A DNA stretch of 64,000 bases, taken from an uncultured Actinomycetes bacterium (GTDB lineage Bacteria; Actinomycetota; Thermoleophilia; UBA2241). Where the stretch lies: positions 288,001 through 352,000 of the forward strand of contig CAVYCN010000003.1 of assembly GCA_963767005.1 (NCBI GenBank), written 5' to 3'. Both the position numbers and the translations under genes were made by a program. Below, in pieces: positions 25,853-45,441 of this stretch (position 1 is the first letter of the stretch; each line of letters starts with the position of its first letter). The notes beneath the pieces were generated by a model. It saw only the letters and a program-made list of their open reading frames with translations. It searched no databases and was not told the origin of the DNA.

Positions 25853-26031
25853 CGAGTCCTCCTTGGTCTACCGCTTCACCGACAGTTGCGAGGCACGAGG
25901 AACGTCGCCGGTTCCCTTCGCCTCTTCGACACGGTGGAGTCTAACAGAATTCCCGCGTCGTTCCTTCCGAAGTTGAAAGCACAAATGGCCCACGCTTGCC
26001 GATTCGCCAAAAACCAGCGCACCCGCCCCGG

Positions 26032-26529
26032 TCAGCCGTGGCTGCCGTTTGCCCGGGTCCAGGCGGCGGCCATCGCCGGCGGCACCACGAGCCACTTGTC
26101 GGCGGCCTTCATGACGACGAAGACCTCGCTCGACTGTACGCCCCCGAGCTTCTGCAGCGAGGCGTTCAGGAACTCGTAGATGCCGTTCATGCCGTCGGCC
26201 GTCACGATCTGGGCGATGATGTCGTAGCGGCCGGTGACGACCGCCGCCCAGCTCACCTCGTCGAGCGCGGCGATGCGCTCGACCATCTCGTCCAGGTTGT
26301 AGCGCTCGAGGCTGAGCCCGACGATGGCCACGGTGAGCTCGGGCATCTCGGAGGCGTCGACCATCGCGGCGATGCGCAGGACGCGCCGGGCGAGCAGGTG
26401 GCGCAGACGGCCGCGCACCGTCGGCGTCGAGATACCCAGGCGCGCGGCGATGTCGGAAGCGGCGAGCCGACCGTCTTCGCACAGCGTGCCGATCAGCGCC
26501 TTGTCGAGCACATCGAGTCCGCGTCTCAT
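26032..26529 (-). CDS. Lrp/AsnC family regulator (AldR-like, upstream of ald)
   Basis: LDKALIGTLCEDGR HTH, VTGRYDI RAM domain; start trimmed to ATG 26529. Confidence 0.9.
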   Translation of the reverse strand: MRRGLDVLDKALIGTLCEDGRLAASDIAARLGISTPTVRGRLRHLLARRVLRIAAMVDASEMPELTVAIVGLSLERYNLDEMVERIAALDEVSWAAVVTGRYDIIAQIVTADGMNGIYEFLNASLQKLGGVQSSEVFVVMKAADKWLVVPPAMAAAWTRANGSHG

Positions 26530-26658
26530 GGTCCCCCCGACCCTGCGACCGGCGGGCCGTGTGGGTCCGCCCAGCCGTGACTTGCTGTGTATCATACTGA
26601 GGCGGCGGTAGAAAGCGGACGGGGCGCGGCGCGGTCCCGGGACTGGCGGTACGAAGGC

Positions 26659-27477
26659 GTGGAGCTCGACGGAGCGCGGTGTCTCGTGATCGGCGGCGCC
26701 CGCCGCCTGGGGCGCGTGATCGCGCTCGACCTGGCGGCCCACGGCGCCGACGTCGCGGTGAGCACCCGGGCCGCGCTCGCCGAAGCCGACGCCACCTGCG
26801 CGGCCATCCGCGCCGAGGGGCGGCGGGCCGCCGCGGTCGTCGGCGACCCCGGCACGCCCCGAGGAGCGGCCGATCTCGTAGCCGCGGCCGCCGACGCGTT
26901 CGGCGGGCTCGACGCGCTCGTATATGCCGCAAGCGGGCCGTTCCGGCCGGCCTCGCCCCACGACGCCGACCTCGACGACTGGCAGGCGTCGTTCGACGTC
27001 ATCGCGCGCGGCTTCTTCGTGGCGGCCCGCGCCGCCCGCGAGCGGTTCGTGGCCGGTGGTCGCACGACCAACCGAGCGCCGGAGCCGTCCGGCGCGGCGC
27101 AGGCCGGGGCCGGCCGGTCCCGCGTCACGCGCGGCGTGATCGTCGCCCTCACCGACGTGCTCGGCCGGCGGCCGTCGACGGCCTTCGCCGGGCATGGCGC
27201 CGCGAAGGCCGCGCAGATCATGCTGGTCGCGTCGCTCGCGCGGGCCTGGGGCACCGACGGCGTGCGCGTCTGCGGCGTAGCTCCTGGTCCTACCGCGCTC
27301 GGCGACGACCCGCGCGCCGACGCCACGCTGCGCGCCGCGGCACGCGCCCCGCTGGGGCGTCCGGTGACGCCGGCCGAGGTGGCCGCGGTCGTGCGCTTCG
27401 CGATCGAGTGCGACGCGCTGACCGGCGTCGACCTGCCGGTCGACGGAGGCGCGTCGCTGGGCGAGCCGGTGCTGTAG
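26659..27477 (+). CDS. Short-chain dehydrogenase/reductase (pteridine reductase/FolM-like)
   Basis: GGARRLG, VAPG and TGVDLPVDGG motifs; the catalytic YxxxK appears as HxxxK. Confidence 0.8.
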   Translation: MELDGARCLVIGGARRLGRVIALDLAAHGADVAVSTRAALAEADATCAAIRAEGRRAAAVVGDPGTPRGAADLVAAAADAFGGLDALVYAASGPFRPASPHDADLDDWQASFDVIARGFFVAARAARERFVAGGRTTNRAPEPSGAAQAGAGRSRVTRGVIVALTDVLGRRPSTAFAGHGAAKAAQIMLVASLARAWGTDGVRVCGVAPGPTALGDDPRADATLRAAARAPLGRPVTPAEVAAVVRFAIECDALTGVDLPVDGGASLGEPVL

Positions 27478-27522
27478 GGCCCGAGCCGGGTCGGGCGCCG
27501 CTCATGCGGCGCCGACGTCGGA

Positions 27523-27564
27523 CGCTCGACGCCGGGCGCTCAACGCCGGGCGCTCAACGCCGGG
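27523..27564. repeat. Three tandem 14-bp repeats
   Basis: CGCTC(G/A)ACGCCGGG x3 between the convergent SDR and pucR genes. Confidence 0.75.
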
Positions 27565-27574
27565 CCGCCGGCGT

Positions 27575-29236
27575 CTACCCCTGACGCACCGCGCGCGGGC
27601 GCTTGCCCGACTGGGCGATCAGCTCGCGCGCCTTGAGGGCGAGCCAGAACTCCATGCGGTCCTGCGAGCTGGCGAGGTCGCGCCCCGTGATCTCCTCGAC
27701 GCGCTTCATGCGGTAGCGCAGCGTATGACGATGCACGTAGAGGCGCTCGGCGGCCTCGCCCCAGTGGCCGTTGGCCTCGAGGAAGCAGGCGAGGCTCTTG
27801 ACCAGGTCGCTCGCGTTCTGCTCGTCGTACTCGTGCAGCTTGCCGAGCACGCTGTCGTAGAAGACCTCGAGCGACACCGTGTCCTGCAGGCCCAGCAGCA
27901 GGCCGTAGGAGCCGAGGTCGTCGAAGCTCGCGATCACGCTCGTGCCGCCCTTGAGCTTGCGGATCTGGATCGCGTACAGGGCCTCGTAGTAGCTCTGCCG
28001 CAGGTCGACCAGCAGATGATGCGGGCGCCCGATGCCGATCGACACGGTGACCTCGGGGATCAGGCCGGCGATCGCCGTCTGCAGCTCGGCGGTGAGCGCC
28101 AGAATGTCGTGGGCGCTGCGCTCGCCGAGCTGCAGCAGGACGATGACCGAGTCGCTGTGCGAGGCCGAGATGAACAGCAGCTCGCGCTGGGCGAGGAACT
28201 CGTCGACCGCCCAGTGCAGGCGCTCCTTGACGTCCTGCACCGTCTCCTCGCGGTCGCGGGCGCCGTCGACGAAGGCCTTGAAGCCGTCGACGTCGACCAG
28301 CATGATGAGCTGCTCGGCGCCGGGCTCGAGGCCGAAGAAGGCGAGGCGCCGGGCGATCTCCTCTTCGTAGAGGTCGCTGGCGATGAGCTCGTCGAAGAAG
28401 TCGCCGGCGAGGCGCTTCTCGGTCTCGGCGACGGCCTTCTTCTTGACGAGCTCGAGCGCGCTCACGGTGACCACGTGGTGCAGGATGATGCGGTCGTAGT
28501 CGGAGAACTCGCCGCCGTCCTTGATGACCGCGAGGAACGCGCCGATGCGGTGCGAGGCGACCACCGGGTAGACCTGCGCGACCCCGCCGCCGCCGTGCGG
28601 CAGCTCGACCGTGAAGTCCTGGCGCGAGGCGCGCTTGTCGGAGATCTCCTTCCAGAGGTCGGCGATCAGCTCGGCCGGGATGCGGCGGCGGTGCGCCGCC
28701 TCGCAGAGCACAAGGCCGTGGAAGTCGAAGAGCACGGCCGAGCAGCCCACCAGGGCCGACAGGGTCGAGATGATGAACTGCAGGCCCTTCTCCTCGAGCA
28801 CGATCTTGGTGAGCTTCTCGTGGACGGCGAGCGAGCGCTGCAGGAGCGAGTACTGCTCGTTCACGATCTTCGAGGCGACGGCCTCGGTGATGGCGATGAA
28901 CGGCACGTTGTAGGGCACCTCGAACAGGGGGAAGTCGTGGCGCTCCGCGAGCTCGACCATGGCGTCGGGCACGGTCTTGAAACCGAAGCCGACGCCGAAA
29001 CCGAGGCCCGAGAGGTTGGCGTCGATCAGACGCTGCAGCATGGCGAGCTGTTCGGCCTCGCGGCCGACCAGGGCGAGGCCGGTCGTGAGCAGGAGCTCGC
29101 CGCCCTTGAGCCAGCGCGTCGGGTCGGACATCTCGGCGATGTGCACCCAGCGCACCGGGTTGCTCACCGCCTTCTTGCCGGCGCACAGCTTGAGGTTGAG
29201 CCCGGGGATCTCGAGGATGTCCTGAACGGTGATCAT
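27575..29236 (-). CDS. PucR/CdaR family transcriptional regulator
   Basis: PucR ligand domain (VRWVHIAE, WLKGGELLLTTG), GAF/GGDEF-like middle, C-terminal LYVHRHTLRYRM HTH. Confidence 0.95.
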   Translation of the reverse strand: MITVQDILEIPGLNLKLCAGKKAVSNPVRWVHIAEMSDPTRWLKGGELLLTTGLALVGREAEQLAMLQRLIDANLSGLGFGVGFGFKTVPDAMVELAERHDFPLFEVPYNVPFIAITEAVASKIVNEQYSLLQRSLAVHEKLTKIVLEEKGLQFIISTLSALVGCSAVLFDFHGLVLCEAAHRRRIPAELIADLWKEISDKRASRQDFTVELPHGGGGVAQVYPVVASHRIGAFLAVIKDGGEFSDYDRIILHHVVTVSALELVKKKAVAETEKRLAGDFFDELIASDLYEEEIARRLAFFGLEPGAEQLIMLVDVDGFKAFVDGARDREETVQDVKERLHWAVDEFLAQRELLFISASHSDSVIVLLQLGERSAHDILALTAELQTAIAGLIPEVTVSIGIGRPHHLLVDLRQSYYEALYAIQIRKLKGGTSVIASFDDLGSYGLLLGLQDTVSLEVFYDSVLGKLHEYDEQNASDLVKSLACFLEANGHWGEAAERLYVHRHTLRYRMKRVEEITGRDLASSQDRMEFWLALKARELIAQSGKRPRAVRQG

Positions 29237-29449
29237 GTCGATCGGCCCCCTCCGCGCACATGCCGTCGCAGTGTGTCGCCGCCCATTCTACCTTCTGTCC
29301 AAGTGCAAGGCCAGAGGGCCGCCCATATTGTCCAAGGCGTCGATGACGAGTGGCTGGCGGCACGCCGCCCGCGGTCGTGGCCGCGACGGCCCCAGCGGCG
29401 CTCGGCGAGGCAGGCGACCCTCCCCCGGCGCCGCCTGGGTGGCCCCGGC

Positions 29450-29791
29450 TCAGGCTCCCGGCGCGTTGGCCTCGACGACGACCGCGCTGCCGTAGCAGAT
29501 GACCTCGGTCATGTTCTGCATGAGCTCGGTCGCGTCGTAGCGCACGCCGATGATGGCGTTGGCGCCCATCTGGTCGGCATGCGCCGCCATGATGGCGAAG
29601 GCCTCGGCGCGGGCCTGCTCGCACAGCTCCACATACTCGTCGATACGGCCGCCCGCCAGCGAGCGAAGGCCGGCGGCGATCTGGCTGCCGATATGCGCGG
29701 CACGCACGGTCACCCCGCGCACCACGCCCAGGTTGCGCACCACATGGCAACCCGGCATCTCGAACGTCGTCGATGTCCACGCGTAGTCCAC
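29450..29791 (-). CDS. YbjQ/UPF0145 family protein
   Basis: LGVVRGVTV, GANAIIGVRYD and CYGSAV motifs. Confidence 0.9.
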   Translation of the reverse strand: MDYAWTSTTFEMPGCHVVRNLGVVRGVTVRAAHIGSQIAAGLRSLAGGRIDEYVELCEQARAEAFAIMAAHADQMGANAIIGVRYDATELMQNMTEVICYGSAVVVEANAPGA

Positions 29792-29902
29792 GACACCCTC
29801 CTCGCTGCGGCGGCCGGTGACGACGCGGGGCATGGCGGGCCGCGTCGCGTCGCATCCTGTGTTCGCGACGCGACGGGGGCGTCCCTGCCCGGGCGGTGCG
29901 GG

Positions 29903-31000
29903 TCAGTCCATCTCGAAGACGCGGTACGGGTTCTCGCAGGGCGGACCCGCGCAGGCGTACAGGCGACGCTCGTCGAGGTCGCAGATCATGCTGCCCACCG
30001 TCTGGCCCTGCTCGGCGAGCGGCTCGCTCGTGTCGGGATGGCCGCAGATGGCCGCGTCGGGCGCGGGCTCGTGGCAGCGCAGCACACGGGCGACGAGCTC
30101 GATCGGGTCGTCGCCCCTCGCCACACCCTCGGCCAGCAGACGGCGGGCGGTGTCGAGACGCGTGCGTGTCTCCTCGTGGCGCACGGCCTCGTGACCGGCC
30201 ATCTCGGCCAGGTCGTAGTGATTGGTGTGCGCCAGGTACGACTCGCCGGAGGCGACCGCGAAGGCCGTAGCCGATGTCTCGACGTCTTCGAGGCGGCCGT
30301 GCGTGTCGGCGAAGAGCTGGTTGGTGCCCCGGGCGCGGGCGGCGAGCGTGCCGCGCGCACGCGCCTCGTCGACCGTCGGCGCCTCGATCGACCAGCGCCG
30401 CACGAAGGCGTTCGGCACACCCACCCGGTTGTCGCTGGAGTGCAGCGAGTTGCTCACGTTGCCGACGCCGTGCGAGTTCATGCCGAGCATCGGCAGGTAG
30501 GGCACGCCGGCGATCGTCAGGATGCGGGTGCCGTCGGGCACCGTGACATCGAACAGCACGTTGTTCTCGACGTCGACCACGTACCAGTCCATGTTGTGAC
30601 CCACGACGTGCCGCCCTGCGGCACTCACCGCCACGGCCGTGCAGTGGTCGCCCTGGCCGGCGCCCGCCGGCAGCGGCGCCGGGACGCCCTCGACCGGCTC
30701 GCCCGATGTGAACTCCTCGGCGCAGTTCGGCACGAAGAGCTCCATGAAGGGACGGCCCGACCCCTCGGCCATGCCCTCGAGCTCTTCGACGTACTGCGGC
30801 AGCCAGGCGCGCGCGTGGCACAGATAGGCGGCGGCCTCGCGCCGCGCGTCGACGAACGACAGGCCGCCGCTCATCGCCGCGAACTGCTCGCGGTAGAAGT
30901 CCAGGGACGCTTCGATCTGGGGTCGGGCGGCCTCGCCGATCTGGCGGCCGATCTCGCGGTACGACCCGCGAGCGCGCACGTACACGAACGGGACCGCCAT
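29903..31000 (-). CDS. Peptidase C45 family Ntn-hydrolase/acyltransferase (AAT/Tan-like)
   Basis: GSYREIGRQIG, EELEGMAEG, autocleavage site H-CTAVAV, GHNMDW, GMNSHG and HTNHY motifs. Confidence 0.88.
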   Translation of the reverse strand: MAVPFVYVRARGSYREIGRQIGEAARPQIEASLDFYREQFAAMSGGLSFVDARREAAAYLCHARAWLPQYVEELEGMAEGSGRPFMELFVPNCAEEFTSGEPVEGVPAPLPAGAGQGDHCTAVAVSAAGRHVVGHNMDWYVVDVENNVLFDVTVPDGTRILTIAGVPYLPMLGMNSHGVGNVSNSLHSSDNRVGVPNAFVRRWSIEAPTVDEARARGTLAARARGTNQLFADTHGRLEDVETSATAFAVASGESYLAHTNHYDLAEMAGHEAVRHEETRTRLDTARRLLAEGVARGDDPIELVARVLRCHEPAPDAAICGHPDTSEPLAEQGQTVGSMICDLDERRLYACAGPPCENPYRVFEMD

Positions 31001-31117
31001 GGGGCTCCTTTCGCTCGAGCCGGTGGGCCGCCGCGCCGGGCCGATCGCCGGGGCCGGCGACGCGCACGGATAGGCGGCGGCGGGGCGGCCGCCGCAGGCG
31101 GCCGCCCCGCCGCCTTC

Positions 31118-32200
31118 CTAGCTTGCCCCTCCCAGCCGCAGGCAGGCCGCGTGGTGGCTGCCCCGCACCTGCACGTCCGAGGGGTCCTGCTGTGAGCAGA
31201 TGTCCATCACCTCGGGGCAGCGCGGATGAAAGCGACAGCCGCTCGGGATGGCGGCCGGGTTGGGCGTCTCGCCGGTGAGCACCAGGTGCTCGCGGCGGGC
31301 GGTCGGGTCGGGCACCGGGATCACGCTGATCAGGGCCTTGGTGTAGGGGTGCTGGGGGTTGGCCACGACCTCTTCGGTCTCGCCGATCTCGACGATCTTG
31401 CCGAGGTACATGACGGCGATGCGATCGGAGATCACCCAGGCCAGCGAGAGGTCGTGGGTGATGAACAGATAGGTGACGCCGAGCTCGCGCTTGTGGGCCA
31501 CCATGAGCTTCAGGATGTCGTTGCGGATCGAGACGTCGAGGCTCGCCACGGGCTCGTCGGCGACGATCATGTCGGGCTCGAGCACGATCGCCCCGGCGAT
31601 GCAGACGCGCTGGCGCTGGCCGCCGGAGAGCTCGTGCGGGTAGCGGTAGAGGTAGTCGCGGGCGGGCCGCAGGCCGGCCTCCTCTAAGGCGCGCACGACG
31701 CGCTCCTCCTTGTCGCGCTCGCTTACCACCAGGTGGTTGACCACAAGCGGCTCGGCCACGATGTCGAAGATCGTGTGCTTGGGGTTGATCGCGTTGTAGG
31801 GGTCCTGGAAGATGATCTGGCAGTTTCTCCGGTAGTCGCGGATCGCCTGGGGGCTGAAGCGCCCCACCTCGAGGCCCTTGTAGAAGATCTGGCCGCCGGT
31901 CTGGCGCTCCAAGCCCAGCAGGGTGCGCCCGGTCGTGGTCTTGCCGCAGCCGCTCTCGCCCACTAAGGCCAGGATCTCGCCGGCCCCGATCGTAAAGGAG
32001 ATGCCATCGACGGCCCGCACCCAGTGCTTCTCGGTGGCCACCATGGAACGCAGGAAGCTCTGGCGCACCGGGAAGAAGACCTCCAGGCCGCGGATGTCAT
32101 AGAGCACGCCGTCGCGCACCGCAGCGCCGCGCAGCTCCTTGCGGCCGATCGCCCCGCCCTCCTTGGCGGCGGCCGAGGGGTTGTCAGTCACTGTCGCCAT
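31118..32200 (-). CDS. Oligopeptide/dipeptide ABC transporter ATP-binding subunit (OppF/DppF-like)
   Basis: [20 protein letters not shown] and C-terminal GCRFHPRC motifs. Confidence 0.93.
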
Positions 32201-33220
32201 CTAGGCCACCTTCCAGCAGCGCGCGTAGTGTCCGGGCGAGACCGCCACCATCTCCTGGTCGCTTTCAGTGCAGGCCGGCTCGGCTAGGGCGCAGCGCGGG
32301 TAGAAGCGACAGCCGGGCGGCGGGTCTAGCAGGTTGGGCGGGTCGCCGGCGATCGAGCTCACCATCTCGCGGGTCTCGTGGATGTTGGGGAAGGCCTTGA
32401 TGAGCTGCCGTGTGTAGGGGTGCGAGGGGGCCGTGAAGATGTCGGTCGTCGAGCCGGCCTCGACCACCTTGCCGGCGTACATGATGACGCCCTTGTCGCA
32501 GGTCTCGGCCATGACCGAAAGATCGTGGCTGATGAGGATGAAGGAGAGCGCCAGCTCGTGGCGTAAGCGCTCGATCAGCTCGAGGATCTGGGCCTGGACC
32601 ATGACGTCCAAGGCGGTGGTGGGCTCGTCGCCGATCACCAGCTTGGGGTTGCAGGCCAGGGCCATGGCGATCATCGCGCGCTGGCGCATGCCGCCGCTCA
32701 TCTCGTGGGGGAACTCAGTCACGCGCTTGGGGTTGATGCCGACCAGATCGAAGAGCTCGCGGGCGCGGACCATCGCCTTGGCCTCGCTTAGGCCCTCGTG
32801 GAGGATGATCGGCTCGGCGATCTGGCGGCCCACCTGCTGCACCGGGTTCAGGGCGTTCATCGCCCCCTGGAAGATGATCGAGACCTCCTTCCAGCGGATC
32901 TTGGACATGCCGTACTCGGTGCGCTTGGCCAGGTTGCGACCGTCGAAGAGCACCTCGCCACTGACGATGCGGCCGTTTTCGGGTAAGAGCTTGAGGATCG
33001 CCAGGGCGGCCGTGGTCTTGCCGCAGCCGCTCTCGCCGGCCAGGCCCAGGCTGTGGCCGCTCTCCAACATGAAGCTCACGCCGTCGACGGCTTTGACGTC
33101 GCCCTCGCGCAGCTTGAAGTAGGCCTTCAGGTCGCGCACGTCGAGGATGCCCTCGTGGTCGATGCGGGCCGCGGCCTCCTTGGCGGGGGCGGCCGCGGCA
33201 GCGCCCGTGTGCGGGCTCAT
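32201..33220 (-). CDS. Oligopeptide/dipeptide ABC transporter ATP-binding subunit (OppD/DppD-like)
   Basis: [26 protein letters not shown] and GCRFYPRC motifs. Confidence 0.93.
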
Positions 33221-34632
33221 ATGACACCTCCCGGATCGCCGCCGACACTGCCGTCACGCACGACCGTCGCACTGTACAGGCCCGTGGGGATGGCGACGAC
33301 CGACTCGGTGTCGTCGCCGGGCCGTCCGCCGCTCTCCTCACGCTTGCGCAGCTTCGGATCGAGGATCTCGTCGAAAGCCGTGCCCATGAAGGTGAAGGCG
33401 AGCACGACCAGCACGATCGCGATGCCCGGCGGCAGCAGGTACCACCAGGCCGGCAGGCCGGCCGCGCCCGAGTCCCAGGCGTAATGCAGCATCGTGCCCC
33501 AGCTGAAGTTGAGCGGGTCGCCGAGGCCGAGGAACGACAGGGTCGTCTCGGACAGGATGGCGATCGCCACCACCAGGATGGTGTTGGCAAAGACGAGCGG
33601 GAAGACGTTCGGCAGGATGTGCTTGCGCATGATGTGCATGTCGCTCGAGCCGATCGCCCGCGAGCGCTCGATGAACTGCAGCTCGCGCACACGCATGGCG
33701 TCGGCGCGCACCACACGGGCGGTGCCGGGCCAGCTCGTGATGCCGATGATCAGCACGAGGATCATGTAGTTCTGACCCCAGGCCGCGACCAGCACCATGG
33801 CAAGCGGCAGCCAGGGGATCACGAGGAAGGCGTCGGTCAGACGCATCAGCACCTCGCTGAACCAGCCGTGGTAGTAGCCGGCGGCCACGCCGATACCGGC
33901 CCCCAGCACGGTCGAGATCGCCGTGGCGAACAGGCCGACCGCGAGCGAGATGCGCGAGCTCCAGATGAACTCGGCGAGCACCGACATGCCCTGCTCGGTG
34001 GTGCCGAACCAGTGGTAGTAGGACAGCGTCGGCGTCGCGAACGGGCTGCCGATCTGCGCCGTCGGGTCGAGCAGCGCGTGGTCGGCGAGGAACGGCGCGA
34101 GCAGCGCCATGAACAAAAAGACGAGCATGATGAACAGGCCGACCATGCCCTGCCAGTTGGCGCGGTACAGGCGCCAGATCTGGCGCGTGTTCCAGACCAT
34201 GAGCTCGGCGCGCTCGGGATTGGCGACGCCCCAGGCGTAGACGCAGGCGGCCAGCAGCACGATGACCACCGTCTGGAAGAGCCAGGCGAAGGTGGTGTCG
34301 CGGCCGTTCAGGGCGAGGCTGCCGTGAAGCACGCCGGCGCCGGCCGCGAACCACAGCAGGCAGTCGGCGCAGGCCGCGAGCAGCAGCAAGGGCAGCAGCC
34401 GCGAGCGCGACTGCCTGAAGAGCTGCGTCGCGCCGAAGACGCCCAGGGCGACGGCGAGAACGAGCGGCACGATCGGCGGGTAGTTGCCCACCGTCGGCGC
34501 CACGAAGCCGCCCAGCAGGTGGACGACGCCGGTGCGCAGCGGCCGGTCCTTGGGATAGGTGATGAGCGACACCAGCAGCCAGACGACCGGCGTCCAGACG
34601 TAGATCCAGGTGCGCAGACGATGGGGGATCAT
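33217..34632 (-). CDS. ABC peptide transporter permease (OppC-like) with an extra N-terminal membrane domain
   Basis: HWFGT, FIERSRAIG (EAA loop), HILPN, LSFLGLG and SWG motifs; about 140 extra hydrophobic N-terminal residues. Confidence 0.92.
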   Translation of the reverse strand: MIPHRLRTWIYVWTPVVWLLVSLITYPKDRPLRTGVVHLLGGFVAPTVGNYPPIVPLVLAVALGVFGATQLFRQSRSRLLPLLLLAACADCLLWFAAGAGVLHGSLALNGRDTTFAWLFQTVVIVLLAACVYAWGVANPERAELMVWNTRQIWRLYRANWQGMVGLFIMLVFLFMALLAPFLADHALLDPTAQIGSPFATPTLSYYHWFGTTEQGMSVLAEFIWSSRISLAVGLFATAISTVLGAGIGVAAGYYHGWFSEVLMRLTDAFLVIPWLPLAMVLVAAWGQNYMILVLIIGITSWPGTARVVRADAMRVRELQFIERSRAIGSSDMHIMRKHILPNVFPLVFANTILVVAIAILSETTLSFLGLGDPLNFSWGTMLHYAWDSGAAGLPAWWYLLPPGIAIVLVVLAFTFMGTAFDEILDPKLRKREESGGRPGDDTESVVAIPTGLYSATVVRDGSVGGDPGGVI

Positions 34633-35600
34633 GCCTTCACCCGCGGGTCGAGGTAGTAGTACATGATGTCGGCGATCAGGTTCGCGACGATCACGGCGAT
34701 GCTGCCCAGCAGGAACACGGCCTGCATGACCGGGTAGTCGCGCTGCATCATGGAGTCCCAGGAGAGCAGGCCGAGGCCGGGCCAGTTGAACACGGCCTCA
34801 GTGAGGATAGCGCCCGACATGACGAAGCCGATGTTCATCATGATGAGGGTGACCGTCGGCAGCATGGCGTTGGGCGCCACGTGCCGCCAGAGCACGTTCG
34901 AGTCGGACAGACCCTTGGCCCGCGCGGTCAGCACGTAGTCCTCTTTCATGACGCCGGTGAGCGAGCTGCGCACGATCAGGTGGTACTCGCCCATGTAGGT
35001 GATGGCGAACGTGAAGGCCGGCAGGAACAGGTGGTGCAGCAGCGCGCCGAACTGGTCGAGCCAGCCCGAGTAGGTCGCGCCGGGGTCGTACATGCGTCCG
35101 ACCGGGAACCAGCGTAACCACGTCGCGAAGATCATGATGAAGATCAGACAGATCCAGAAGGTCGGCGCGGAGTACATGACCATGCCGGCGTTGGTGGTCG
35201 CCACGTCGAACCGGCTGTTTCGTCGCCAGCCGGCAAAGACCCCGGTTATCACCCCGATGATGGTCGCGATGATGGTGCCCGTGCCGACGAGCAGGACGGT
35301 CGGCCAGATGCGCTCGCCGACGACCTGAGCCACCGGGCGCTTCTGCGCGAAGGAGTCGCCGAACTTGAGGCGGACGGTGTCGCCCCAGTAGAGCACGAAC
35401 TGCTCCCAGAGCGGCTTGTTCAGGTGGAAGTTGGCGCGCTGCTTGGCCATCGCGTCCATCGAGAAGCGACCCTTGGGCACCAGCAGGCGGGCCGGGTCGC
35501 CGGGCAGGATACGAAAGAGCACGAAGTTGAACGACGCGATGAGAGCGATGGTGAGCAGGGCGTTCATGATCTTGCGGGCGAAATAGCGCCGCTTATCCAC
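34629..35600 (-). CDS. ABC peptide transporter permease (OppB-like)
   Basis: LPGDP, DYVLTARAKG, FNWPGLG and RDYPVMQ motifs. Confidence 0.93.
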   Translation of the reverse strand: MDKRRYFARKIMNALLTIALIASFNFVLFRILPGDPARLLVPKGRFSMDAMAKQRANFHLNKPLWEQFVLYWGDTVRLKFGDSFAQKRPVAQVVGERIWPTVLLVGTGTIIATIIGVITGVFAGWRRNSRFDVATTNAGMVMYSAPTFWICLIFIMIFATWLRWFPVGRMYDPGATYSGWLDQFGALLHHLFLPAFTFAITYMGEYHLIVRSSLTGVMKEDYVLTARAKGLSDSNVLWRHVAPNAMLPTVTLIMMNIGFVMSGAILTEAVFNWPGLGLLSWDSMMQRDYPVMQAVFLLGSIAVIVANLIADIMYYYLDPRVKA

Positions 35601-35913
35601 GGCCCTGGCGCGCCGCGCCGTTCGGCGAGACGATCTGCGCGCTCATTCCCCTCCCTCCGTTCTTCGGTCGCGACCCGGCCGTGCGGCCGATGGCCCGCAC
35701 GGCAGTCGCCCGTCTTTGCGTTGTGAGGGGAGATGACCCCCAGGCGACATGACGCCGGGGGACCGGCCGCCGATCCCACCTGCGGCCGTCAGACGACCCC
35801 CCTCGTCGAACGAGTCCGTGTTTGGGCATTGTACGCCACATGGCAAGAGGCGACGACCCGGACTCGCTCGACCGACCTGCACCGACTCGATGGGGCCCGA
35901 TGCGCCCGCTCAC

Positions 35914-35959
35914 TCGCGTGGCGGCCGCGGCCGGGCTCGTGACCGCGGCCGCCACGCGA
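35914..35959. terminator. Strong hairpin after oppA
   Basis: 17-bp inverted repeat TCGCGTGGCGGCCGCGG / CCGCGGCCGCCACGCGA. Confidence 0.6.
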
Positions 35960-35973
35960 TGCCGCCCCGGGGC

Positions 35974-37812
35974 CTACTCCTCGACCGCGCGCGGCCGCGA
36001 GCGCCGCCGCAAGGCGAAGACGCACGCGACGACGATGGCCACGATGACCGCAGCGCCGACGATCCACGCCGTGGAGGCCGCACCTCGGGTCGCCCTCGCC
36101 GCGACCGGCCGCAGGTTCACGTAACTATCGACGTTGCCGGCGGTATAGAAGGCCGGCCCCCTGCCGTCGCCGACCCGTGTCCAGCCCGTCCATCTGGCCG
36201 TGTCGTAGGCCTCGAAGAAATCCGGGTAGGTCAGCACGATCCACGGCGTCTGCTGGTACATGATCTCCTGCATGCGCCGGATGAGCGCCTGCCTGGCAGT
36301 GGTGTCGAGGGCGGCCGCCTGCTGCGCGCAGAGCCTGTCGTACTGCGGGTCTGACCAGCTCGGTTCGTTCGTGCCGCCGATCTGCGCCGTGGTCTCGGCC
36401 GTCAATGTCTCGCCGGGGTCGAGGTAGCCCAGCCAACTGTTGACGTACAGGTCGAAGTCTGGCGTGTAGGTGCTGCCCCTGAAGTTCCACAGACGGGCGT
36501 TCAGGGCGCCGGGGTCGAGCACGCTGAAGTCGATCCTGATGCCGAGCTTCTGCAGCCAGCCGGTGATCAGCTTGCCCTCGATCTGCGAGGGATCGCTGTC
36601 GGTTGTGGCCCAGAGGCGCAGGACGATCGGCTTGCCCCGCCGGTCGACACGCACGCCCCCGCGCAGCGGGTAGCCCGCGGCGGTGAGGAGCTGGCCCGCC
36701 TTGGCCAGATCGAACGCGTAGAGCTGGCCGACGGACGGCTGCCAGTGGTAGTCGGGATCGACCCAGGTGTGGGGCGGGAGGATGGTCGTGCCGGGCATCG
36801 CATAGCCCTGGAAGGCGATCGCGCAGAGCCGCTGCCGGTCGATCGCGTAGTTGAGTGCGTTGCGGAACCGCCAGTCGCGCAGCACCGGGTTACCGAGCGA
36901 CGCCTTGCCCGCGTAGCAGTTGAAATTCAGGTACTCCCAGTTGTAGTAGGGGTAGGACAGCGCGGTGAGGCCGGGTGTCGAGGACAGGGTCTTGAACTGG
37001 GCGACCGGGATGCCCCAGGCGGCATCGAGAGCGCCGCTCTTCAGGTCGGCCGTCATGGTATCGGCGTCCTCGTAGGTCTCGAAGAAGATCTCGTCGACGG
37101 CCGGCCGCTTGCCCCAGTAGTAGGGGTTGCGGTCCAGGCGCAGGTACGAGCCCTTCACCCACTTGGCCACAGTGAACGGCCCGCTGCCAACAATCGGCAC
37201 GGCGTTGGTGAAGCTCGTGGTGGCCGCCTGCGGACTGACCTTCTTCCAGACGTGCTCCGGCACGATCGGCACGAAGATCTTCTCCATGTCCGCCTTCGGG
37301 CTCGAGCACGTGATGCGCACCGTGGTGGCATCGAGCGCCGTGGCGCCGAGAACGCCCGCCGTCGAGATCGCCATGTTGAGCATCTTGTTCTTGACAATGT
37401 AGTCGTAGGTGAAGGCGACGTCGGACGCGGTCAGCGGCTGGCCATCCGACCACCGGACGTTGGGCCGGATGTGGATGGTCCAGACCTTGCCGTCGGCCGA
37501 CAGCCCTCCGTTGGCCTTGGTCGGGAACTCGCTCGCGAGGTCGAGCGCGGGCCGCGACGTCGTGCCGAATCCGAACAGGAAGTCGTAGTTGATGGACCAG
37601 ATCTCGTAGTCCTGGTTCTGCCACCCGATGAAAGGGTTGAGGTTGTCGGGCTCGGTGGTCCAGCCGATGTGCAAGGCGACGCCGCCCGTGCTCGGCGCGG
37701 GCGAAGGGCTCGCCGCGAGCGCCTCGACCGACCCCACCGTGACCCCGGCGAGGAGCACCGAGACCGCGACGAGAGCGGCTCGCCGCAGACCGCCTGAGAA
37801 TCTCCTGTCCAT
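35974..37812 (-). CDS. ABC transporter family 5 substrate-binding protein with a C-terminal TM anchor
   Basis: LNPF, WSDGQPLTASDVAFT, GSGPF, RNPYYWG and YAIDR motifs; C-terminal hydrophobic helix followed by RRRSR. Confidence 0.93.
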   Translation of the reverse strand: MDRRFSGGLRRAALVAVSVLLAGVTVGSVEALAASPSPAPSTGGVALHIGWTTEPDNLNPFIGWQNQDYEIWSINYDFLFGFGTTSRPALDLASEFPTKANGGLSADGKVWTIHIRPNVRWSDGQPLTASDVAFTYDYIVKNKMLNMAISTAGVLGATALDATTVRITCSSPKADMEKIFVPIVPEHVWKKVSPQAATTSFTNAVPIVGSGPFTVAKWVKGSYLRLDRNPYYWGKRPAVDEIFFETYEDADTMTADLKSGALDAAWGIPVAQFKTLSSTPGLTALSYPYYNWEYLNFNCYAGKASLGNPVLRDWRFRNALNYAIDRQRLCAIAFQGYAMPGTTILPPHTWVDPDYHWQPSVGQLYAFDLAKAGQLLTAAGYPLRGGVRVDRRGKPIVLRLWATTDSDPSQIEGKLITGWLQKLGIRIDFSVLDPGALNARLWNFRGSTYTPDFDLYVNSWLGYLDPGETLTAETTAQIGGTNEPSWSDPQYDRLCAQQAAALDTTARQALIRRMQEIMYQQTPWIVLTYPDFFEAYDTARWTGWTRVGDGRGPAFYTAGNVDSYVNLRPVAARATRGAASTAWIVGAAVIVAIVVACVFALRRRSRPRAVEE

Positions 37813-37822
37813 GATCCCCCCT

Positions 37823-38890
37823 TCAGCTCAGCAGAGCCCTGGCGATAGGCTGCAGGTCGCGATCGGCGGGCATCTCGTCGAGACCGATCAGGGCGAGGAC
37901 GACCGCCTTCTGGAGGTGCTTCCGGTTGGCGGCCATCGGCCAGACGATCGACGCCGCTCCGTCGATGACCTCGTCGGTCACCTCGTCGCCCCTCACCGCC
38001 GGCAGGCAGTGCATGAAGCGCGCGCCCGGCTTGGTCTTGGCCCAGAGTTCGCGATTCACCTGGAAACGGCGGTTCTTGCGTCGCATCTCGGCCACGTGCT
38101 CCGGGGACTCCGCCCACCACCACAGCGAGGTGTAGACGTAGTCGGCGGTCACAACGGCTTCCTCGGGATCGTCGGTGGTGAGCAGGTGCGTGTCCCACAG
38201 GCCGCAGTTGTCGTCGACCGCCCGGCGGACGGCGTCCGGGAACGCGAAGTGTTCCGGCGTCGCCACGTTCACGTTCATGCCGAGGCGGGAGAACGTCAGT
38301 GCCACCGAGTCGCACATGCAGTCGCCGTTGCCGAGGAACGCCATCGTGGCGCCCTCGAGGGGTCCGCCCGCCTCGATGATCGTCATCGCATCGCTCAACG
38401 ACTGGATGGGATGGTCGTAGTCGCCGGCCTCGCCGTTGATCACGGGGATGGTGGCCGCGTCGGCCAGCTCCTGGAGCACGGCGACCGTCTGCGTGCGTGC
38501 CATGAGCGCGTCGAGGAACTGCGACAGGGCCTTGGCCGTGTCGGCCACGCTCTCGCGGCCGGGCAGGTGCATCTCGCCGGGGCGCAGGTAGACGGCGTGC
38601 CCGCCGAGCTCGGTCATCCCGGTCTCGAAGCTCACCCGCGTGCGGGTGGAGGGATCGTCGAACAGCATCCCGAGGTGATGCGCGGGCAGGAACGGAGTAA
38701 GCCGCTTGCGACCGCGGAGCGCCTTGAGCTCGATCGCCAGCTTGATCAGGTCGAGAAGCTCGTCCCGCGTGTAGGCCTGGTCCGTGACGTAGTCACGACC
38801 GCGGAACCGCGCAAGCGGCGGTAGCGGTGCGGCCAGGATCGACTCGAGCGTCGTTGCCGACGCCGCCGCGGCGTGCGCCATGTCGACCAC
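37823..38890 (-). CDS. Aspartate/ornithine carbamoyltransferase superfamily enzyme, putrescine-carbamoyltransferase-like with a divergent amine site
   Basis: STRTRVSFE, HPIQ and MHCLPAVRG motifs; lacks the OTC DxxxSMG motif (has YTSLWWWAE). Start may be ATG 38881. Confidence 0.85.
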   Translation of the reverse strand: MVDMAHAAAASATTLESILAAPLPPLARFRGRDYVTDQAYTRDELLDLIKLAIELKALRGRKRLTPFLPAHHLGMLFDDPSTRTRVSFETGMTELGGHAVYLRPGEMHLPGRESVADTAKALSQFLDALMARTQTVAVLQELADAATIPVINGEAGDYDHPIQSLSDAMTIIEAGGPLEGATMAFLGNGDCMCDSVALTFSRLGMNVNVATPEHFAFPDAVRRAVDDNCGLWDTHLLTTDDPEEAVVTADYVYTSLWWWAESPEHVAEMRRKNRRFQVNRELWAKTKPGARFMHCLPAVRGDEVTDEVIDGAASIVWPMAANRKHLQKAVVLALIGLDEMPADRDLQPIARALLS

Positions 38891-38933
38891 CCCCCTCGGA
38901 AGTTCGGTCCCGGTGCCTCAACGTCGGGCCGAT

Positions 38934-38953
38934 TTGATTGGTCGTACAATAAA
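38934..38953. promoter_or_regulatory. Putative TetR operator 1, overlapping the -10 of the carbamoyltransferase-oppA promoter
   Basis: TTGATT-GGTCGTAC-AATAAA; a minus-strand TTGACA -35 lies at 38971-38976. Confidence 0.65.
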
Positions 38954-39030
38954 CCATCGCGCACAGGACATGTCAAGTGAGTGGTCAAGGGCGGCTCGGA
39001 GAGACGGCGAAGTGAGGTGGCGGGCGGCGG

Positions 39031-39741
39031 CTACTCCGCGCCCAGACGGTCGAGGCGGTCGATCAGCATCCGACGCCACAACCCGAAGGTGCCGTCGTGG
39101 TCGAACCGTGCCCGGTCGGCCGCGAACTGCACGGCGAGCCCTTCGACGACCGCGACGCTCAGGGCCGCGAGACGATCCAGATCGGCGGCCTCCGCGCCCG
39201 CGCTCGCGCCCTCGAGGCAGCGGCGATCGAGCTCCCGGGATGAGCGATACGACTCGGCCAAGCGCGCCCGCATGACGTCGTCGTGCATGATGTGGGGCAG
39301 CAGCTCGTAGAAGGCGCGAAAGCCACGCCAGTCGGCGGAGATCTCGCGCTGGGCGTCGAGCAGGGCGGCGACGCGGGCGCCGGGGTCGGCGATGGCCGCA
39401 AGCTCGCCGCGCAGGCCAACGTCCTCGTCCTCCATGAGCGAGTCGACCACCGCCTGCACGAGGCCGCGCTTGTTGCCGAAGTAGTAGGCGACCAGAGCCC
39501 GGAACTCGCCCGACTCCTCCTCGATCTCCTTCAGGGTGAAGTGCTGATAGCCCTTCTCGGTGAGAATGCGCTTGGCGGCCTCGAGGATGCGCTGCGCCGT
39601 CGGAGACGCCGGCCGGGACCGCTCGGACCCACCCGCCTCTCGCTTGTCTGCCGGCTGCCTGGCCAGTTGTCTCGCTCCCCTTCGTCGCGACCTTCCCATC
39701 TTACCTCGCCGTGGCTCAGGACCCCGCGTGACGATGGCCAC
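39031..39741 (-). CDS. TetR/AcrR family transcriptional regulator
   Basis: RILEAAKRILTEKGY...LVAYYFGNKRGL HTH; exact start uncertain. Confidence 0.92.
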   Translation of the reverse strand: MAIVTRGPEPRRGKMGRSRRRGARQLARQPADKREAGGSERSRPASPTAQRILEAAKRILTEKGYQHFTLKEIEEESGEFRALVAYYFGNKRGLVQAVVDSLMEDEDVGLRGELAAIADPGARVAALLDAQREISADWRGFRAFYELLPHIMHDDVMRARLAESYRSSRELDRRCLEGASAGAEAADLDRLAALSVAVVEGLAVQFAADRARFDHDGTFGLWRRMLIDRLDRLGAE

Positions 39742-39767
39742 CGCCGGCGCCTATCTGGCTCATGGCG

Positions 39768-39787
39768 TTGATTTATCGTACAATCAA
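39768..39787. promoter_or_regulatory. Putative TetR operator 2, between the divergent tetR and deiminase genes
   Basis: Palindrome TTGATT-TATCGTAC-AATCAA; matches operator 1 at 17 of 20 positions. Confidence 0.65.
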
Positions 39788-39833
39788 ACCCGCTTCCGCG
39801 ATAGTCCGGCACTCGCCCACGAGGGGAGTTTCC

Positions 39834-40910
39834 ATGCAGATCGACGACACGCAGGCCGTCGGCACCGGCGCAGCCGAGGAGCTGCCGGCCGGCGCCGGCT
39901 TTCGCATGCCGGCCGAATGGGCGCCGCACGAGCGCTGCCTGATGGCGTGGCCGTCTTCGGCGCGCGCAAACGTCTGGGGCGATCACTACATGCTCGCCCA
40001 GGCGTCGTATGCCGCGGTGGCGCACGCGATCGCCGCGTTCGAGCCCGTAGTCATGGTCGCACGGCCCGACGACGCGGATGCCGCGCGCAGCTACTGCGGC
40101 CGCGACATCGAGGTGCTCGAGCTGCCCATCGATGACTCCTGGCTGCGCGACAGCGGCCCGATCTTCGTGGTGGGGCCGGGCGGCGAGCGCGCGGTGGCGG
40201 ACTTCCGCTTCAACTCCTGGGGCGAGCGTTACCTGCCGTACGACCTCGACGCCCGGATCGGCGAGCGGCTCAGCGAGCACTTCGGCGTGCGACGGTTCGC
40301 CGCTCCCCTCGTGCTCGAGGGTGGGTCGATCACCGTCGACGGCGAGGGCACCCTCGTTACAACCGAAAGCTGCCTGCTGCATCCGAGCCGCAACCCCCAG
40401 TTGACCAGGGACCAGATCGAGCGACACCTCATGGACTACCTGGGCGTCACGAAGGTCGTCTGGCTGAAGGCCGGCCTCGGCCTCGCCGAGGACCCCGACA
40501 CCGACGGTCACGTCGACGGCGTCGCCTTCTTCGCCGGGCCGGGCCGCATCGTGCTGCACATGGTGCGCGACCCCCAACACCCCGACTACGAGAACTTCCG
40601 CGAGAACCGCCGCCGTCTCGAGACGACCGACGCCCGCGGACGCGAGATCGAGGTCATCGAGATGGACGCGCGTAGCCGGCCCGTCGTGGTGGGCGGCGTC
40701 AACATCGTCGAGACCTACATCAACAGCTACTTCGCAAACGGCGGGCTGGTCGTGCCGACGGCAGGCACGGGCGACGACGAGGCTGCCCTGGAGCTCCTGC
40801 ACACGATGGTCCCGGACCACGAGGTCGTCGGAGTGCCCTGCCCCGTCGTCGCCTACGGCGGGGGCGGCATCCACTGCATCACGCAGCAGATGCCCGCGAC
40901 CGCCTCCTGA
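39834..40910 (+). CDS. aguA: Agmatine deiminase / peptidylarginine deiminase (PAD_porph) family
   Basis: MPAEW, DSWLRDSGP, LEGGSI, TDGHVD and GGGIHCITQQ (catalytic Cys) motifs. Confidence 0.9.
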   Translation: MQIDDTQAVGTGAAEELPAGAGFRMPAEWAPHERCLMAWPSSARANVWGDHYMLAQASYAAVAHAIAAFEPVVMVARPDDADAARSYCGRDIEVLELPIDDSWLRDSGPIFVVGPGGERAVADFRFNSWGERYLPYDLDARIGERLSEHFGVRRFAAPLVLEGGSITVDGEGTLVTTESCLLHPSRNPQLTRDQIERHLMDYLGVTKVVWLKAGLGLAEDPDTDGHVDGVAFFAGPGRIVLHMVRDPQHPDYENFRENRRRLETTDARGREIEVIEMDARSRPVVVGGVNIVETYINSYFANGGLVVPTAGTGDDEAALELLHTMVPDHEVVGVPCPVVAYGGGGIHCITQQMPATAS

Positions 40911-40937
40911 CCCGGGTCTGCAGCGCCAGAAGAAGAC

Positions 40938-40974
40938 GGGCAGGGGAGGGCTGCTGCGCAGCCCTCCCCTGCCC
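40938..40974. terminator. Hairpin between convergent genes
   Basis: 17-bp perfect inverted repeat GGGCAGGGGAGGGCTGC / GCAGCCCTCCCCTGCCC. Confidence 0.7.
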
Positions 40975-40991
40975 ATGTCGCGTCCGGTGTC

Positions 40992-41798
40992 CTATTCGAG
41001 CAGCCCCGCGCGATGGGCCTTGAGGTAGCGGCCGCAGAAGCTGTCCTCGTTGCGCAGCGCCTCGATCGCCTTGACCGTCGCCATCATCTGCTTGTTGCGC
41101 ACGTCGAGCACGGCGCCGTCGATGCCGATGCCGGCGCACATGGCCACGAACGTGCGGTTGAGCAGCGGCCGGTTCGGCAGCCCGAAGCTGACGTTGCTGA
41201 GGCCGCCCGTCGAGCGCACGCCCGGCAGGTTGGCCTTGATGAGGGCCAGGGTGCCCATGGTCACGAGGGCCGCGGTCGAGTCGGCCGAGACGGTCATGAC
41301 CAGCGGGTCGAACCACATGTCCTCGGCGGGCAGGCCGGCGGCGGCGAGCTTGTCGTGGAGCATCTTGGCGACCGCGAAGCGGTCTTCGGGGGTGCAGGGG
41401 ATGCCCTCGTCGTTCAGGCAGAGCGCCACCACGGGGCACCTGTACTTCTCGACCAGCGGCAGCACGGTGTCGATGCGGCTCTGCTCGCCGCTGATCGAGT
41501 TGATGTGCGGCACGGTGCCGTCGTTTGCGATCGCGGCCTCGACGCCGGCCTGCAGGGCGGCCGGGCTGGCCGAGTCGATCATGAGCTGCTTGTCGGTCAC
41601 ACTGCGCACGGTGGCGATCAGCCACAGCAGGTCCTCGACCTCGTTGCCGCCGGCGACGCCGCCGTTCACGTCGAGGATGTTGGCGCCGGCTTCGACCTGG
41701 TCGGTCGCCAGCGTCTTGATGAAGTCGGCATCGCGCGACTGGATGGCCTCGCCGACCTGCTTGCGTGTCCCGTTGATCGATTCGCCTACCAACAGCAT
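40992..41798 (-). CDS. Methyltetrahydrofolate:corrinoid methyltransferase (AcsE/MeTr-like pterin-binding protein)
   Basis: VGESING, LDVN, MIDS, INSISGE, FDPLV and GLSNVSFGLPNR motifs; start trimmed to ATG 41798. Confidence 0.9.
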   Translation of the reverse strand: MLLVGESINGTRKQVGEAIQSRDADFIKTLATDQVEAGANILDVNGGVAGGNEVEDLLWLIATVRSVTDKQLMIDSASPAALQAGVEAAIANDGTVPHINSISGEQSRIDTVLPLVEKYRCPVVALCLNDEGIPCTPEDRFAVAKMLHDKLAAAGLPAEDMWFDPLVMTVSADSTAALVTMGTLALIKANLPGVRSTGGLSNVSFGLPNRPLLNRTFVAMCAGIGIDGAVLDVRNKQMMATVKAIEALRNEDSFCGRYLKAHRAGLLE

Positions 41799-41979
41799 GA
41801 CCACTACCTCCACTTGATCTGAACGCGCGATCGCTCCCGGGACCGCGGACTTCAGCGCTGGTGCCGGAGGCCGTATCTTACCGGGGGGGCCGAGACGTTG
41901 CCAACCGCAACGCAAGGCCGGCGACAGAGGGTCGCGATGCGGCGCAGCCGCGCGGCCGGCAAGCTCCGCGGAGCGGCGC

Positions 41980-44910: not shown

Positions 44911-45059
44911 CTTGTCCTCCCCGACGCCGCCCTTGCCCGTCGACGGCGTCTCCCGTTCATTGTCGAGCGCGCCGGCTCAATCCTTGAGCGTTTTGTTGTC
45001 AGTCCTGGCTACGGGGCGGCCGCAGTCGGTCGGCTCGCGGCGGGGTCGGCGATGGTGGC

Positions 45060-45272: not shown

Positions 45273-45407
45273 GGCACCCCCTTCGCGCCTCGCATGGGTA
45301 CCGTCACGTGCGCTTATCACGACGCTATGCCCGCCCTCTCCCCTGCGCAACAGTCGGCGCGGTCCCGGCGAGCGTGGCCTAGACGGATGTTCCATGCCGG
45401 AGATGAA

Positions 45408-45441
45408 GCGGCGGGCGGGCCCGGATGGGCCCGCCCGCCGC
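45408..45441 (-). terminator. Hairpin downstream of groEL
   Basis: 15-bp perfect inverted repeat GCGGCGGGCGGGCCC / GGGCCCGCCCGCCGC. Confidence 0.65.

Follow-up and report, generated by a model that had tools for sequence, protein, structure and literature searches.

The window analysed here is a stretch of 64,000 nucleotides from an uncultured actinomycete of the Thermoleophilia (genome G000, 3.4 Mb; the window lies on its contig C3). It carries a gene of the agmatine deiminase family (aguA) close to genes for a transcarbamylase, an oligopeptide-type (Opp) importer and a C45 hydrolase, and it raises the question of whether these neighbours serve one pathway and on which guanidino compound they act. 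An initial annotation proposed a single nine-gene pathway, including the C45, ybjQ and pucR genes, in which an acylated or peptidyl guanidino compound is imported, deiminated, phosphorolysed and deacylated. The gene order and the divergence of aguA from tetR are as given there, and all of the listed genes were found and are intact, with no internal stop in 14 translated frames. Comparison with related genomes nonetheless indicates that the stretch very probably consists of two units and not of one system. Unit A is a cassette of aguA, tetR, transcarbamylase and oppA; unit B is oppBCDF-[mttB]-C45-pucR, standing behind acsE. Our preferred reading, with a probability of about 0.4, is that the cassette imports and ferments a cationic N1-extended agmatine, borrowing the transporter of a family-wide oppBCDF-C45-pucR operon. 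Further genomes and loci are given by our own G and L numbers where they need to be told apart.

39834..40910, + strand: agmatine-deiminase-family gene aguA (unit A), short-lid type, 327.3 bits to TIGR03380
39031..39699, - strand: BetI-type tetR regulator (unit A), divergent from aguA
37823..38881, - strand: putrescine-type transcarbamylase of clade III (unit A), STRT, HPxQ and HCLP intact
35974..37812, - strand: oppA, family 5 binding protein (unit A), with a hydrophobic leader at the N terminus and a hydrophobic anchor at the C terminus
34629..35600, - strand: oppB (unit B)
33217..34632, - strand: oppC (unit B)
32201..33220, - strand: oppD (unit B)
31118..32200, - strand: oppF (unit B)
29903..31000, - strand: C45 autoproteolytic hydrolase/acyltransferase (unit B), predicted nucleophile C120
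29450..29833, - strand: ybjQ-family gene (unit B)
27575..29236, - strand: PucR-family regulator (unit B), beyond the interval first annotated
40992..41798, - strand: acsE/MtgA-like methyltetrahydrofolate:corrinoid methyltransferase
35885..40929: extent of unit A, 5,045 bp against ~33 bp in the collinear relative G008

Two units at one site

The transcarbamylase, C45, OppB, AguA and OppA proteins served as queries against all 89 genomes of the order, which make up one family. Transcarbamylase orthologues (at least 72% identity) are present in eight of the 89. A species-level genome collection returned the same seven relatives and otherwise nothing above 70% identity but one short fragment, and in 301 genomes of the class a profile search gave no clade III transcarbamylase outside the family. 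An OppA orthologue adjoins the transcarbamylase in all eight carriers, and the transcarbamylase adjoins oppBCDF-C45 in G000 alone (1/8). The gene after oppA is oppB in none of the seven other carriers; it is a phosphatase, an EamA transporter, mttB (three genomes) or another deiminase, and one relative has a rearranged cassette whose order ends in tetR and an M20 hydrolase. The co-occurrence of AguA, transcarbamylase, C45 and Opp expected of a single nine-gene pathway is thus confined to one of the eight transcarbamylase genomes, with a link by operator in G004 and G010 alone (see below), and that pathway is not borne out.

Unit B has a distribution of its own. Orthologues of oppB and C45 lie within 12 kb of each other in 49 of the 60 genomes holding both, a count made from hand-picked rows in which second-copy or unchecked oppB matches at or below 70% (G003, G010, G050, G062 and G072) were dropped and C45 paralogues below 54% left out; the other 11 are fragmented assemblies of at least 160 contigs. 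The transcarbamylase is absent from 44 of the 49. Among 20 unit-B loci chosen by oppB match, acsE always precedes oppB, either immediately or separated from it by an S58 gene, and none has a deiminase or transcarbamylase in that interval. The order runs acsE, S58 peptidase (16/20), oppBCDF, sometimes a different oppA, mttB (16/19), C45, then an amidohydrolase, creatininase or ybjQ, and pucR, with ybjQ in five of the 20 loci, all of one genus. From the unit B of the window, mttB (best match in the genome 46%), S58 peptidase and amidohydrolase are all missing at the site, and the cassette stands upstream. Since 44 of the 49 genomes have this operon but no cassette, C45, ybjQ and pucR do not appear to be part of the pathway; they are likely passengers and belong to an older methyltransferase-linked operon. 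On its 3′ side the conserved order continues over 24719-29236 with PucR, SDR, Lrp and alanine dehydrogenase (TIGR00518 over cut-off).

G008 is collinear with the window, at 88.6% over 26044-35884 and 89.5% over 40930-46000, and lacks 35885-40929. The cassette contains no transposase, and the repeats listed include neither terminal repeats nor a target-site duplication at its ends. The junctions are unbridged in the short contig pieces shown from four sequencing runs, and we draw no inference from this. A 1.4-kb element at 18087-19494, with ~98% copies at three further places in the genome, is probably an insertion sequence. In G059, G047 and G041 (L023, L025 and L026) the cassette deiminase or transcarbamylase is in pieces, through decay or sequencing error.

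The cassette is nevertheless tied to the transporter in some relatives, and the tie involves a palindrome that occurs twice within unit A.

39768..39787: palindrome TTGATT-N8-AATCAA between tetR and aguA, predicted TetR operator, overlapping a -10-like TACAAT that faces aguA
38934..38953: second palindrome, predicted operator over the transcarbamylase promoter, just downstream of TTGACA
35914..35959, - strand: perfect 17-bp hairpin without U-tract (z -3.9), directly after the oppA stop, a possible transcript boundary

None of 100 shuffles reaches the two matches seen in the window, which are the sole sites genome-wide at up to one mismatch; TTGACA near the second is conserved in 5/7 aligned loci. 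A related pattern is found in 9/89 genomes, against one for the reversed control, and G047 and G015 have the transcarbamylase without an exact match. A promoter scan rose nowhere above chance and failed to pick up either of the operator-overlapped promoters, and an Rfam search of 20000-48000 returned only one tRNA, with no riboswitch. TetR would bind at these palindromes. In G004 the palindrome lies between acsE and oppB (L048:13787-13806), with the cassette kept elsewhere. G010 has it in the same place (L197, G010:C52:52693-52712), on a contig that ends just before oppB, again with the cassette elsewhere. The two sites are identical over 20 nt, their flanks are 78% alike, and TACAAT is oriented to oppB. 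G002, G041, G047 and G059 carry the cassette with neither oppB adjacency nor an operator before oppB. One subgroup therefore ties the cassette to oppBCDF by position or by operator and, given the operators before oppB in two relatives, the link between cassette and transporter is likely real.

As the cassette has no permeases and an operator was gained before oppB in G004 and G010, its binding protein likely borrows the common OppBCDF translocon, with C45 carried along. The Opp importer of the initial annotation is, on these grounds, probably used by the cassette. Sharing is also visible in the ATPases: oppDF is 100% identical over 2,066 bp between window positions 31128-33193 and G000:C4:434692-436757, and in G008 oppDF is likewise identical between two operons over 2,101 bp (L047 with L203). 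The oppBC genes of both operons are ~73% alike, and G000 and G008 differ by ~10%; the oppDF identity would reflect gene conversion acting on the ATPase pair that the operons share. The second oppBC operons of G004 and G005 lack oppDF, and G000 has some ten close paralogues of OppA, most of them lacking permeases.

OppA orthologues (at least 65% identity) occur in 10 of the 89 genomes, namely the eight with a clade III transcarbamylase, G042 and G067. G042 has tetR-oppA-aguA without transcarbamylase, and in G067 a 76%-identical OppA comes after an AguA above its cut-off and an AguB-like gene that scores too low for its own. Because of these contexts, the OppA ligand is likely agmatine-like. No close solved relative of OppA was found (best E 4.5e-28), and the Atlas offers generic family-5 clusters only, from which the ligand is unreadable. 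Membership in the Opp class does not prove a peptide ligand, since Prb is an Opp-like proline-betaine importer according to a title referenced in PMC3557214.

Substrate sites of the transcarbamylase and the deiminase

The initial annotation rightly called the transcarbamylase atypical. Relative to the putrescine transcarbamylase (PTC) of Enterococcus faecalis, it has S252 for D227, C188 for Q164 and D76 at the Q50/K53 site. Its fold matches that enzyme (Z 40.0, rmsd 2.0 over 306 residues; 38-39% identity) and the ornithine transcarbamylase (OTC) of P. furiosus (Z 43.0, rmsd 1.7 over 311 residues), and the carbamoyl-phosphate motifs are intact: STRT (S78-T81), HPxQ and HCLP (H291-P294). The PTC signature of PMC3282769 comprises the STRT and HCLP motifs, a residue other than Lys two positions before STRT, and a C-terminal extension of ~20 residues that forms a helix. 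STRT and HCLP are present in the window protein, and D76 takes the place of the Lys. A C-terminal extension of 19 residues over the OTC-like paralogues contains a predicted helix (341-351), with no strict match to the PTC helix signature pattern. The protein departs from PTC in the 230-loop, where D227 and (Y/W)(G/W)(V/L/I)X are replaced by SLWWWAE, with Ser at the 227 site and, in the third position of the motif, Ala (orthologues have Glu). The residues K53, N167 and DxxxSMG of OTC are replaced by D76, C188 and SLWWWAE, and the HDLP and (T/S)RWQ motifs of DPTCase/DBTCase by HCLP and SLWWW. The TIGR04384 score is 305.5 bits (cut-off 500), but a canonical-context paralogue scores 306.3, so this cut-off fails to separate the two. 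Source labels for these proteins read ornithine or putrescine carbamoyltransferase.

D227 and Q164 of PTC bind the far amine of putrescine, D227 being the amine binder (PMC4581275). At position 252 the 120 closest proteins have Val (49), Asp (43), Ser (25) or Cys (3), and 126 of 150 distant representatives have Asp, six of the 150 lacking coverage there. Acidic residues have been added elsewhere (D76, D187 and E258). Motifs and gene neighbours define four clades. Clade I (DCWWW) keeps Asp227, has a carbamate kinase and/or an over-cut-off AguA in 24 of 29 loci, and includes L008 of G000. Clade II (VGWWW) is accompanied by permeases and AguB-type amidases, with no deiminase. Clade III (SLWWW) is that of the window, and D227 is lost in all 25 of its proteins among the 120 closest. 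Clade IV (VLWWW) has one to three deiminases, often with a CE4 hydrolase and AguB. The WWW motif is common to all. In a quick tree that omitted five short rows and kept the motif columns, so that clustering by motif is not independent, clade III has a stem of 0.54 (SH-aLRT 100). A carbamate kinase lies within 6 kb in only one of 11 clade III loci. Clade III thus appears to be a lineage-restricted putrescine-type clade with a non-canonical acceptor, and its long stem suggests a change of function.

The deiminase belongs to PF04371: C348, H226, D228 and D106, which supply the Cys-His-Asp triad and the guanidino-binding Asp of the pentein fold, align with 2JER and 6NIB. Its model has TM scores of 0.86-0.89 to agmatine deiminase (AgDI) structures (0.89 to 2JER; best AgDI E 1e-72). 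At 327.3 bits it falls below the TIGR03380 equivalog cut-off of 381.8, which the paralogue at L008 exceeds (550.4). The Medicago enzyme MtAIH binds the distal nitrogen through Asp89 and Asp220 and lines its channel with Trp residues (PMC6447857); the window protein keeps the corresponding D101 and D222 as well as W103 and W129, and lacks a lid of 10-18 residues present in the canonical paralogues. Since the distal-nitrogen Asp residues are kept and the lid is missing, agmatine or an N1-extended agmatine fits. The active sites thus leave room for the N1-substituted agmatine of the initial annotation, but an Arg-peptide is disfavoured, the deiminase being AgDI-like and not PPAD-like (PPAD match E 2e-9, TM 0.71-0.73) and the residues that would bind ornithine being absent from the transcarbamylase. 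Creatine or methylguanidine was dropped as a substrate in view of the retained long channel and distal-nitrogen Asp residues. An in-frame TAG flagged in four AguA orthologues lay outside the alignments and was also dropped.

The C45 protein scores 183.7 bits against NF040521 (cut-off 85), and its C120 aligns with the Cys of 2X1D; a literature search on C45 substrates gave no matches. G000 has some 37-39 MttB-family and eight MtbB-family matches, which, together with the acsE-like gene beside aguA, would fit an anaerobic amine-scavenging lifestyle. In view of the number of MttB-family members, mttB adjacency was discounted as a clue to the substrate.

Related genes occur at several other places. 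L004:7392-10561 combines a clade II transcarbamylase with TetR, an APC permease and a cupin, without deiminase, and is a candidate second new specificity; other clade II loci have AguB-type amidases and MFS or NCS1 permeases alongside. The clade IV loci L028, L030-L033, L037 and L043 contain up to three different deiminases, a CE4 (PuuE/HpPgdA-like) hydrolase, SDR, AguB and another Opp system. OTC-like enzymes with YGNTWHSM instead of DxxxSMG (L006:14298-15233, L010:8738-9673 and L007:4302-4730) cluster with DDAH-like, cyclase, NCS1, nitrilase and MtmB genes and may belong to a methylated arginine or ureide pathway; the SMG-type transcarbamylase of the genome is at L009. An OTC-like gene is present in three near-exact copies (C3:78280-79223, C18:84746-85689 and C3:4162-5096) and a DDAH-like gene in two (C18:88835-89694 and C3:8033-8892). 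A solo transcarbamylase with a degenerate carbamoyl-phosphate motif, AGAAATR, stands behind a deiminase remnant (L005:9574-10644, G000:C3:29173-29559), and a further remnant (C2:673195-673590) lies beside an Orn/Arg decarboxylase and IS110. Carboxyspermidine/CAPA-dehydrogenase-like genes are found beside deiminases of the clade of the window at L079:6662-7825 and L214:2055-3050, in a catabolic-looking context, and in G000 at C15:24674 (with an APC permease and a GAF regulator), C4:386334 and C4:142036.

Candidate substrates

Because the deiminase still binds N1 while the transcarbamylase has lost its amine clamp and gained acids, a second cation beyond N1 is suggested, although an extended cationic ligand remains, overall, somewhat short of an even chance. 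According to the preferred reading, TetR would occupy both palindromes until the ligand appears. OppA would bind the compound and deliver it to the shared OppBCDF. The deiminase, with its catalytic residues intact, would convert the guanidino group to a carbamoyl group and ammonia by the chemistry of its family. The transcarbamylase, to judge from its intact carbamoyl-phosphate motifs and acidic amine pocket, would phosphorolyse the carbamoyl-triamine to the triamine and carbamoyl phosphate, from which a carbamate kinase encoded elsewhere in the genome would make ATP. The preferred ligands would be N1-aminopropylagmatine or diagmatine (G44G), and an aminoacyl-agmatine would fit as well. An AguA homologue specific for diagmatine has been shown, and others have been proposed for aminopropylagmatine, in PMC13625781; PMC10599626 speculates on an aminopropylagmatine deiminase. 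A more specific, joint claim is rather unlikely by our estimate: clade III would be an N-carbamoyl-spermidine/-homospermidine (carbamoyl-triamine) transcarbamylase in an undescribed ATP-yielding fermentation of scavenged aminopropylagmatine or diagmatine, and one of at least four new PTC-derived specificities in one anaerobic Thermoleophilia family, each using the shared gene-converted Opp.

Gene content outside the cassette bears on this scheme. The initial annotation observed, correctly, that the cluster has neither antiporter nor kinase (none is found among its genes). A search of the rest of the genome found two carbamate kinases over the TIGR00746 cut-off (C3:69676 and C4:466713). L008 is a tetR / transcarbamylase-kinase-aguA cluster with an AguA of 550 bits (cut-off 382), and L004 has an APC permease 54-58% identical to those in the canonical clusters of relatives. 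The canonical clusters of the family often lack the antiporter too. Because both kinds of protein are encoded elsewhere, their absence here is no evidence of new chemistry. The kinase gene is duplicated near-exactly (G000:C3:69668-70837 and C4:466478-467647). Four of five cassette genomes searched have a carbamate kinase match, and none of five searched has a match to the SpeY or spermidine-synthase families, which fits scavenging from outside. At the metagenome locus L043 a tandem array combines two deiminases with two transcarbamylases and a kinase, a set such as a bis-guanidine would need.

Several observations weigh against this reading. Because clade I carries His where PTC has Q164, Q164 is no strict marker and Asp alone is firm. 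The deiminase AIH of Campylobacter jejuni, studied as an agmatine enzyme, also has a short lid (PMC6447857). The window deiminase is nearer to the long-lid canonical AgDIs (E 1e-69 to 1e-72) than to the short deiminases of Campylobacterota and Bacteroidota (E 1e-36 to 1e-44). The canonical AguA context in G067 equally fits plain agmatine. G004 (95% complete) gave no carbamate kinase match, and its sole deiminase is that of the cassette. A carboxyspermidine-dehydrogenase-like neighbour is found at only two loci of AguA orthologues. With the operator before the oppB operon in G004 and G010, C45 may be co-induced there. Hydrolases of the M20, CE4 and isochorismatase families flank other copies; the hydrolases beside different copies come from four families in all, which, like the operator-linked C45 of G004, fits an acyl-removal step. 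Finally, on the metagenome contig L046, aguA-tetR-transcarbamylase stands beside acsE as in the window, with acsE at 91.6% identity, as close as that of G008; the cassette may thus be older at the site and have been lost in G008.

The main rival ligand is plain agmatine. The cassette would then be a second, divergent agmatine deiminase pathway in which OppA imports scarce agmatine and N-carbamoylputrescine is still used, with D187 replacing D227. All AgDI substrate residues checked are kept, the pocket residues of PTC are said to vary (PMC4581275), and the G002 locus includes an over-cut-off AguB; the G067 context and the sole deiminase of G004 point the same way. We consider this reading unlikely, however, since D227 is lost in all 25 clade III proteins among the 120 closest and kept in the canonical-context clade, G000 already has a clade I enzyme with kinase and over-cut-off AguA, and the long stem of clade III suggests a changed function.

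The pathway of the initial annotation, with import of an N-acyl- or aminoacyl-agmatine followed by deimination, phosphorolysis and finally deacylation by C45, would explain the loss of D227 and Q164 and the open entrance of the deiminase by an acylated distal nitrogen, and it gains from the operator of the C45 operon in G004, the same site after acsE in G010, and the hydrolases beside other copies. These hydrolases are mutually unrelated, however, and amide hydrolases are common in these genomes. C45 is next to the transcarbamylase in one of eight genomes and with oppBCDF in 44 genomes lacking it, and four carriers have no operator before oppB. The 374-bp gap between oppA and oppB contains the hairpin, and oppB has its own conserved -10-like TA(C/G)AAT ~230 nt upstream. 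The added D76, D187 and E258 would be better matched to a cation than to an uncharged acyl group. Such a pathway is accordingly quite improbable.

An N-methylated agmatine analogue, whose freed methylated diamine would feed MttB/MtbB corrinoid methyltransferases, is slightly less probable still. The smaller residues at 188 and 252 could admit methyl groups, mttB follows oppA in G059, G047 and G041, and many AguA orthologues stand among mttB, mtbB and corrinoid genes. Yet the abundance of MttB-family genes in G000 makes adjacency weak, there is no mttB beside the cassette in G000, G004, G010, G002 and G015, and WWW, being shared by all clades, is no specific methyl cage. Least probable of all is a transcarbamylase that mainly provides biosynthesis with carbamoyl phosphate or nitrogen, or that works towards carbamoylation, with ATP not its purpose: kinases are rarely close to clade III genes, G004 has no match, and L068-L073 keep the deiminase and drop the transcarbamylase, but four of five cassette genomes have a kinase match, G000 has two, and the G004 assembly is incomplete.

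Comparison with known systems

Among the known systems closest to the cassette is the agmatine deiminase pathway of E. faecalis (AguA 2JER, PTC 4A8H/3TXX, AguD and carbamate kinase). The deiminase shares the fold and catalytic residues of that AguA, and the transcarbamylase has the fold and carbamoyl-phosphate motifs of that PTC, again with no Lys before STRT and with a C-terminal helix. The differences lie in the substrate sites (D227 to Ser, Q164 to Cys and Q50 to Asp, and a deiminase without lid) and in the surrounding genes, where the window has an OppA-type binding protein instead of the AguD antiporter, an unlinked kinase, and TetR with its palindromes. DPTCase and DBTCase likewise have Ser or Thr for the loop Asp, but as described in PMC4581275 they are biosynthetic and carry HDLP and (T/S)RWQ, where the window protein has HCLP and SLWWW. 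Transcarbamylases form a small family that has been studied well; for the variant 'putrescine transcarbamylases', that review does not settle whether they are true PTCs. Four motif-defined clades, several of them within one genome and each with its own gene context, make this question testable with few purified proteins.

By description, the aminopropylagmatine and G44G iminohydrolases (PMC13625781, PMC10599626) are also AguA homologues acting on N1-extended agmatines, and the tested G44G enzyme, of 332 residues, is short and inactive on agmatine (PMC13625781). In these accounts the extended agmatines are biosynthetic intermediates, and their enzymes come with AguB-type amidases and with SpeY or aminopropyl donors; the window has a transcarbamylase and an importer. 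Our literature search found no transcarbamylase for the carbamoyl products of extended agmatines.

In Pseudomonas aeruginosa, aguR-aguBA combines a TetR-family repressor and palindromic operators with an agmatine deiminase, an arrangement that the cassette resembles by general description, but there the hydrolase AguB takes the place of a transcarbamylase. The unit B of the window is the same operon as the acsE-oppBCDF-mttB-C45-pucR operon of Thermoleophilia, and the adjacent C45 and Opp genes define no pathway here. The labels of ornithine or putrescine carbamoyltransferase given to these proteins are a trap for annotation. Set against these systems, the cassette appears to be a variant of the agmatine deiminase pathway limited to a few uncultured species, with the transcarbamylase as its probable novelty.

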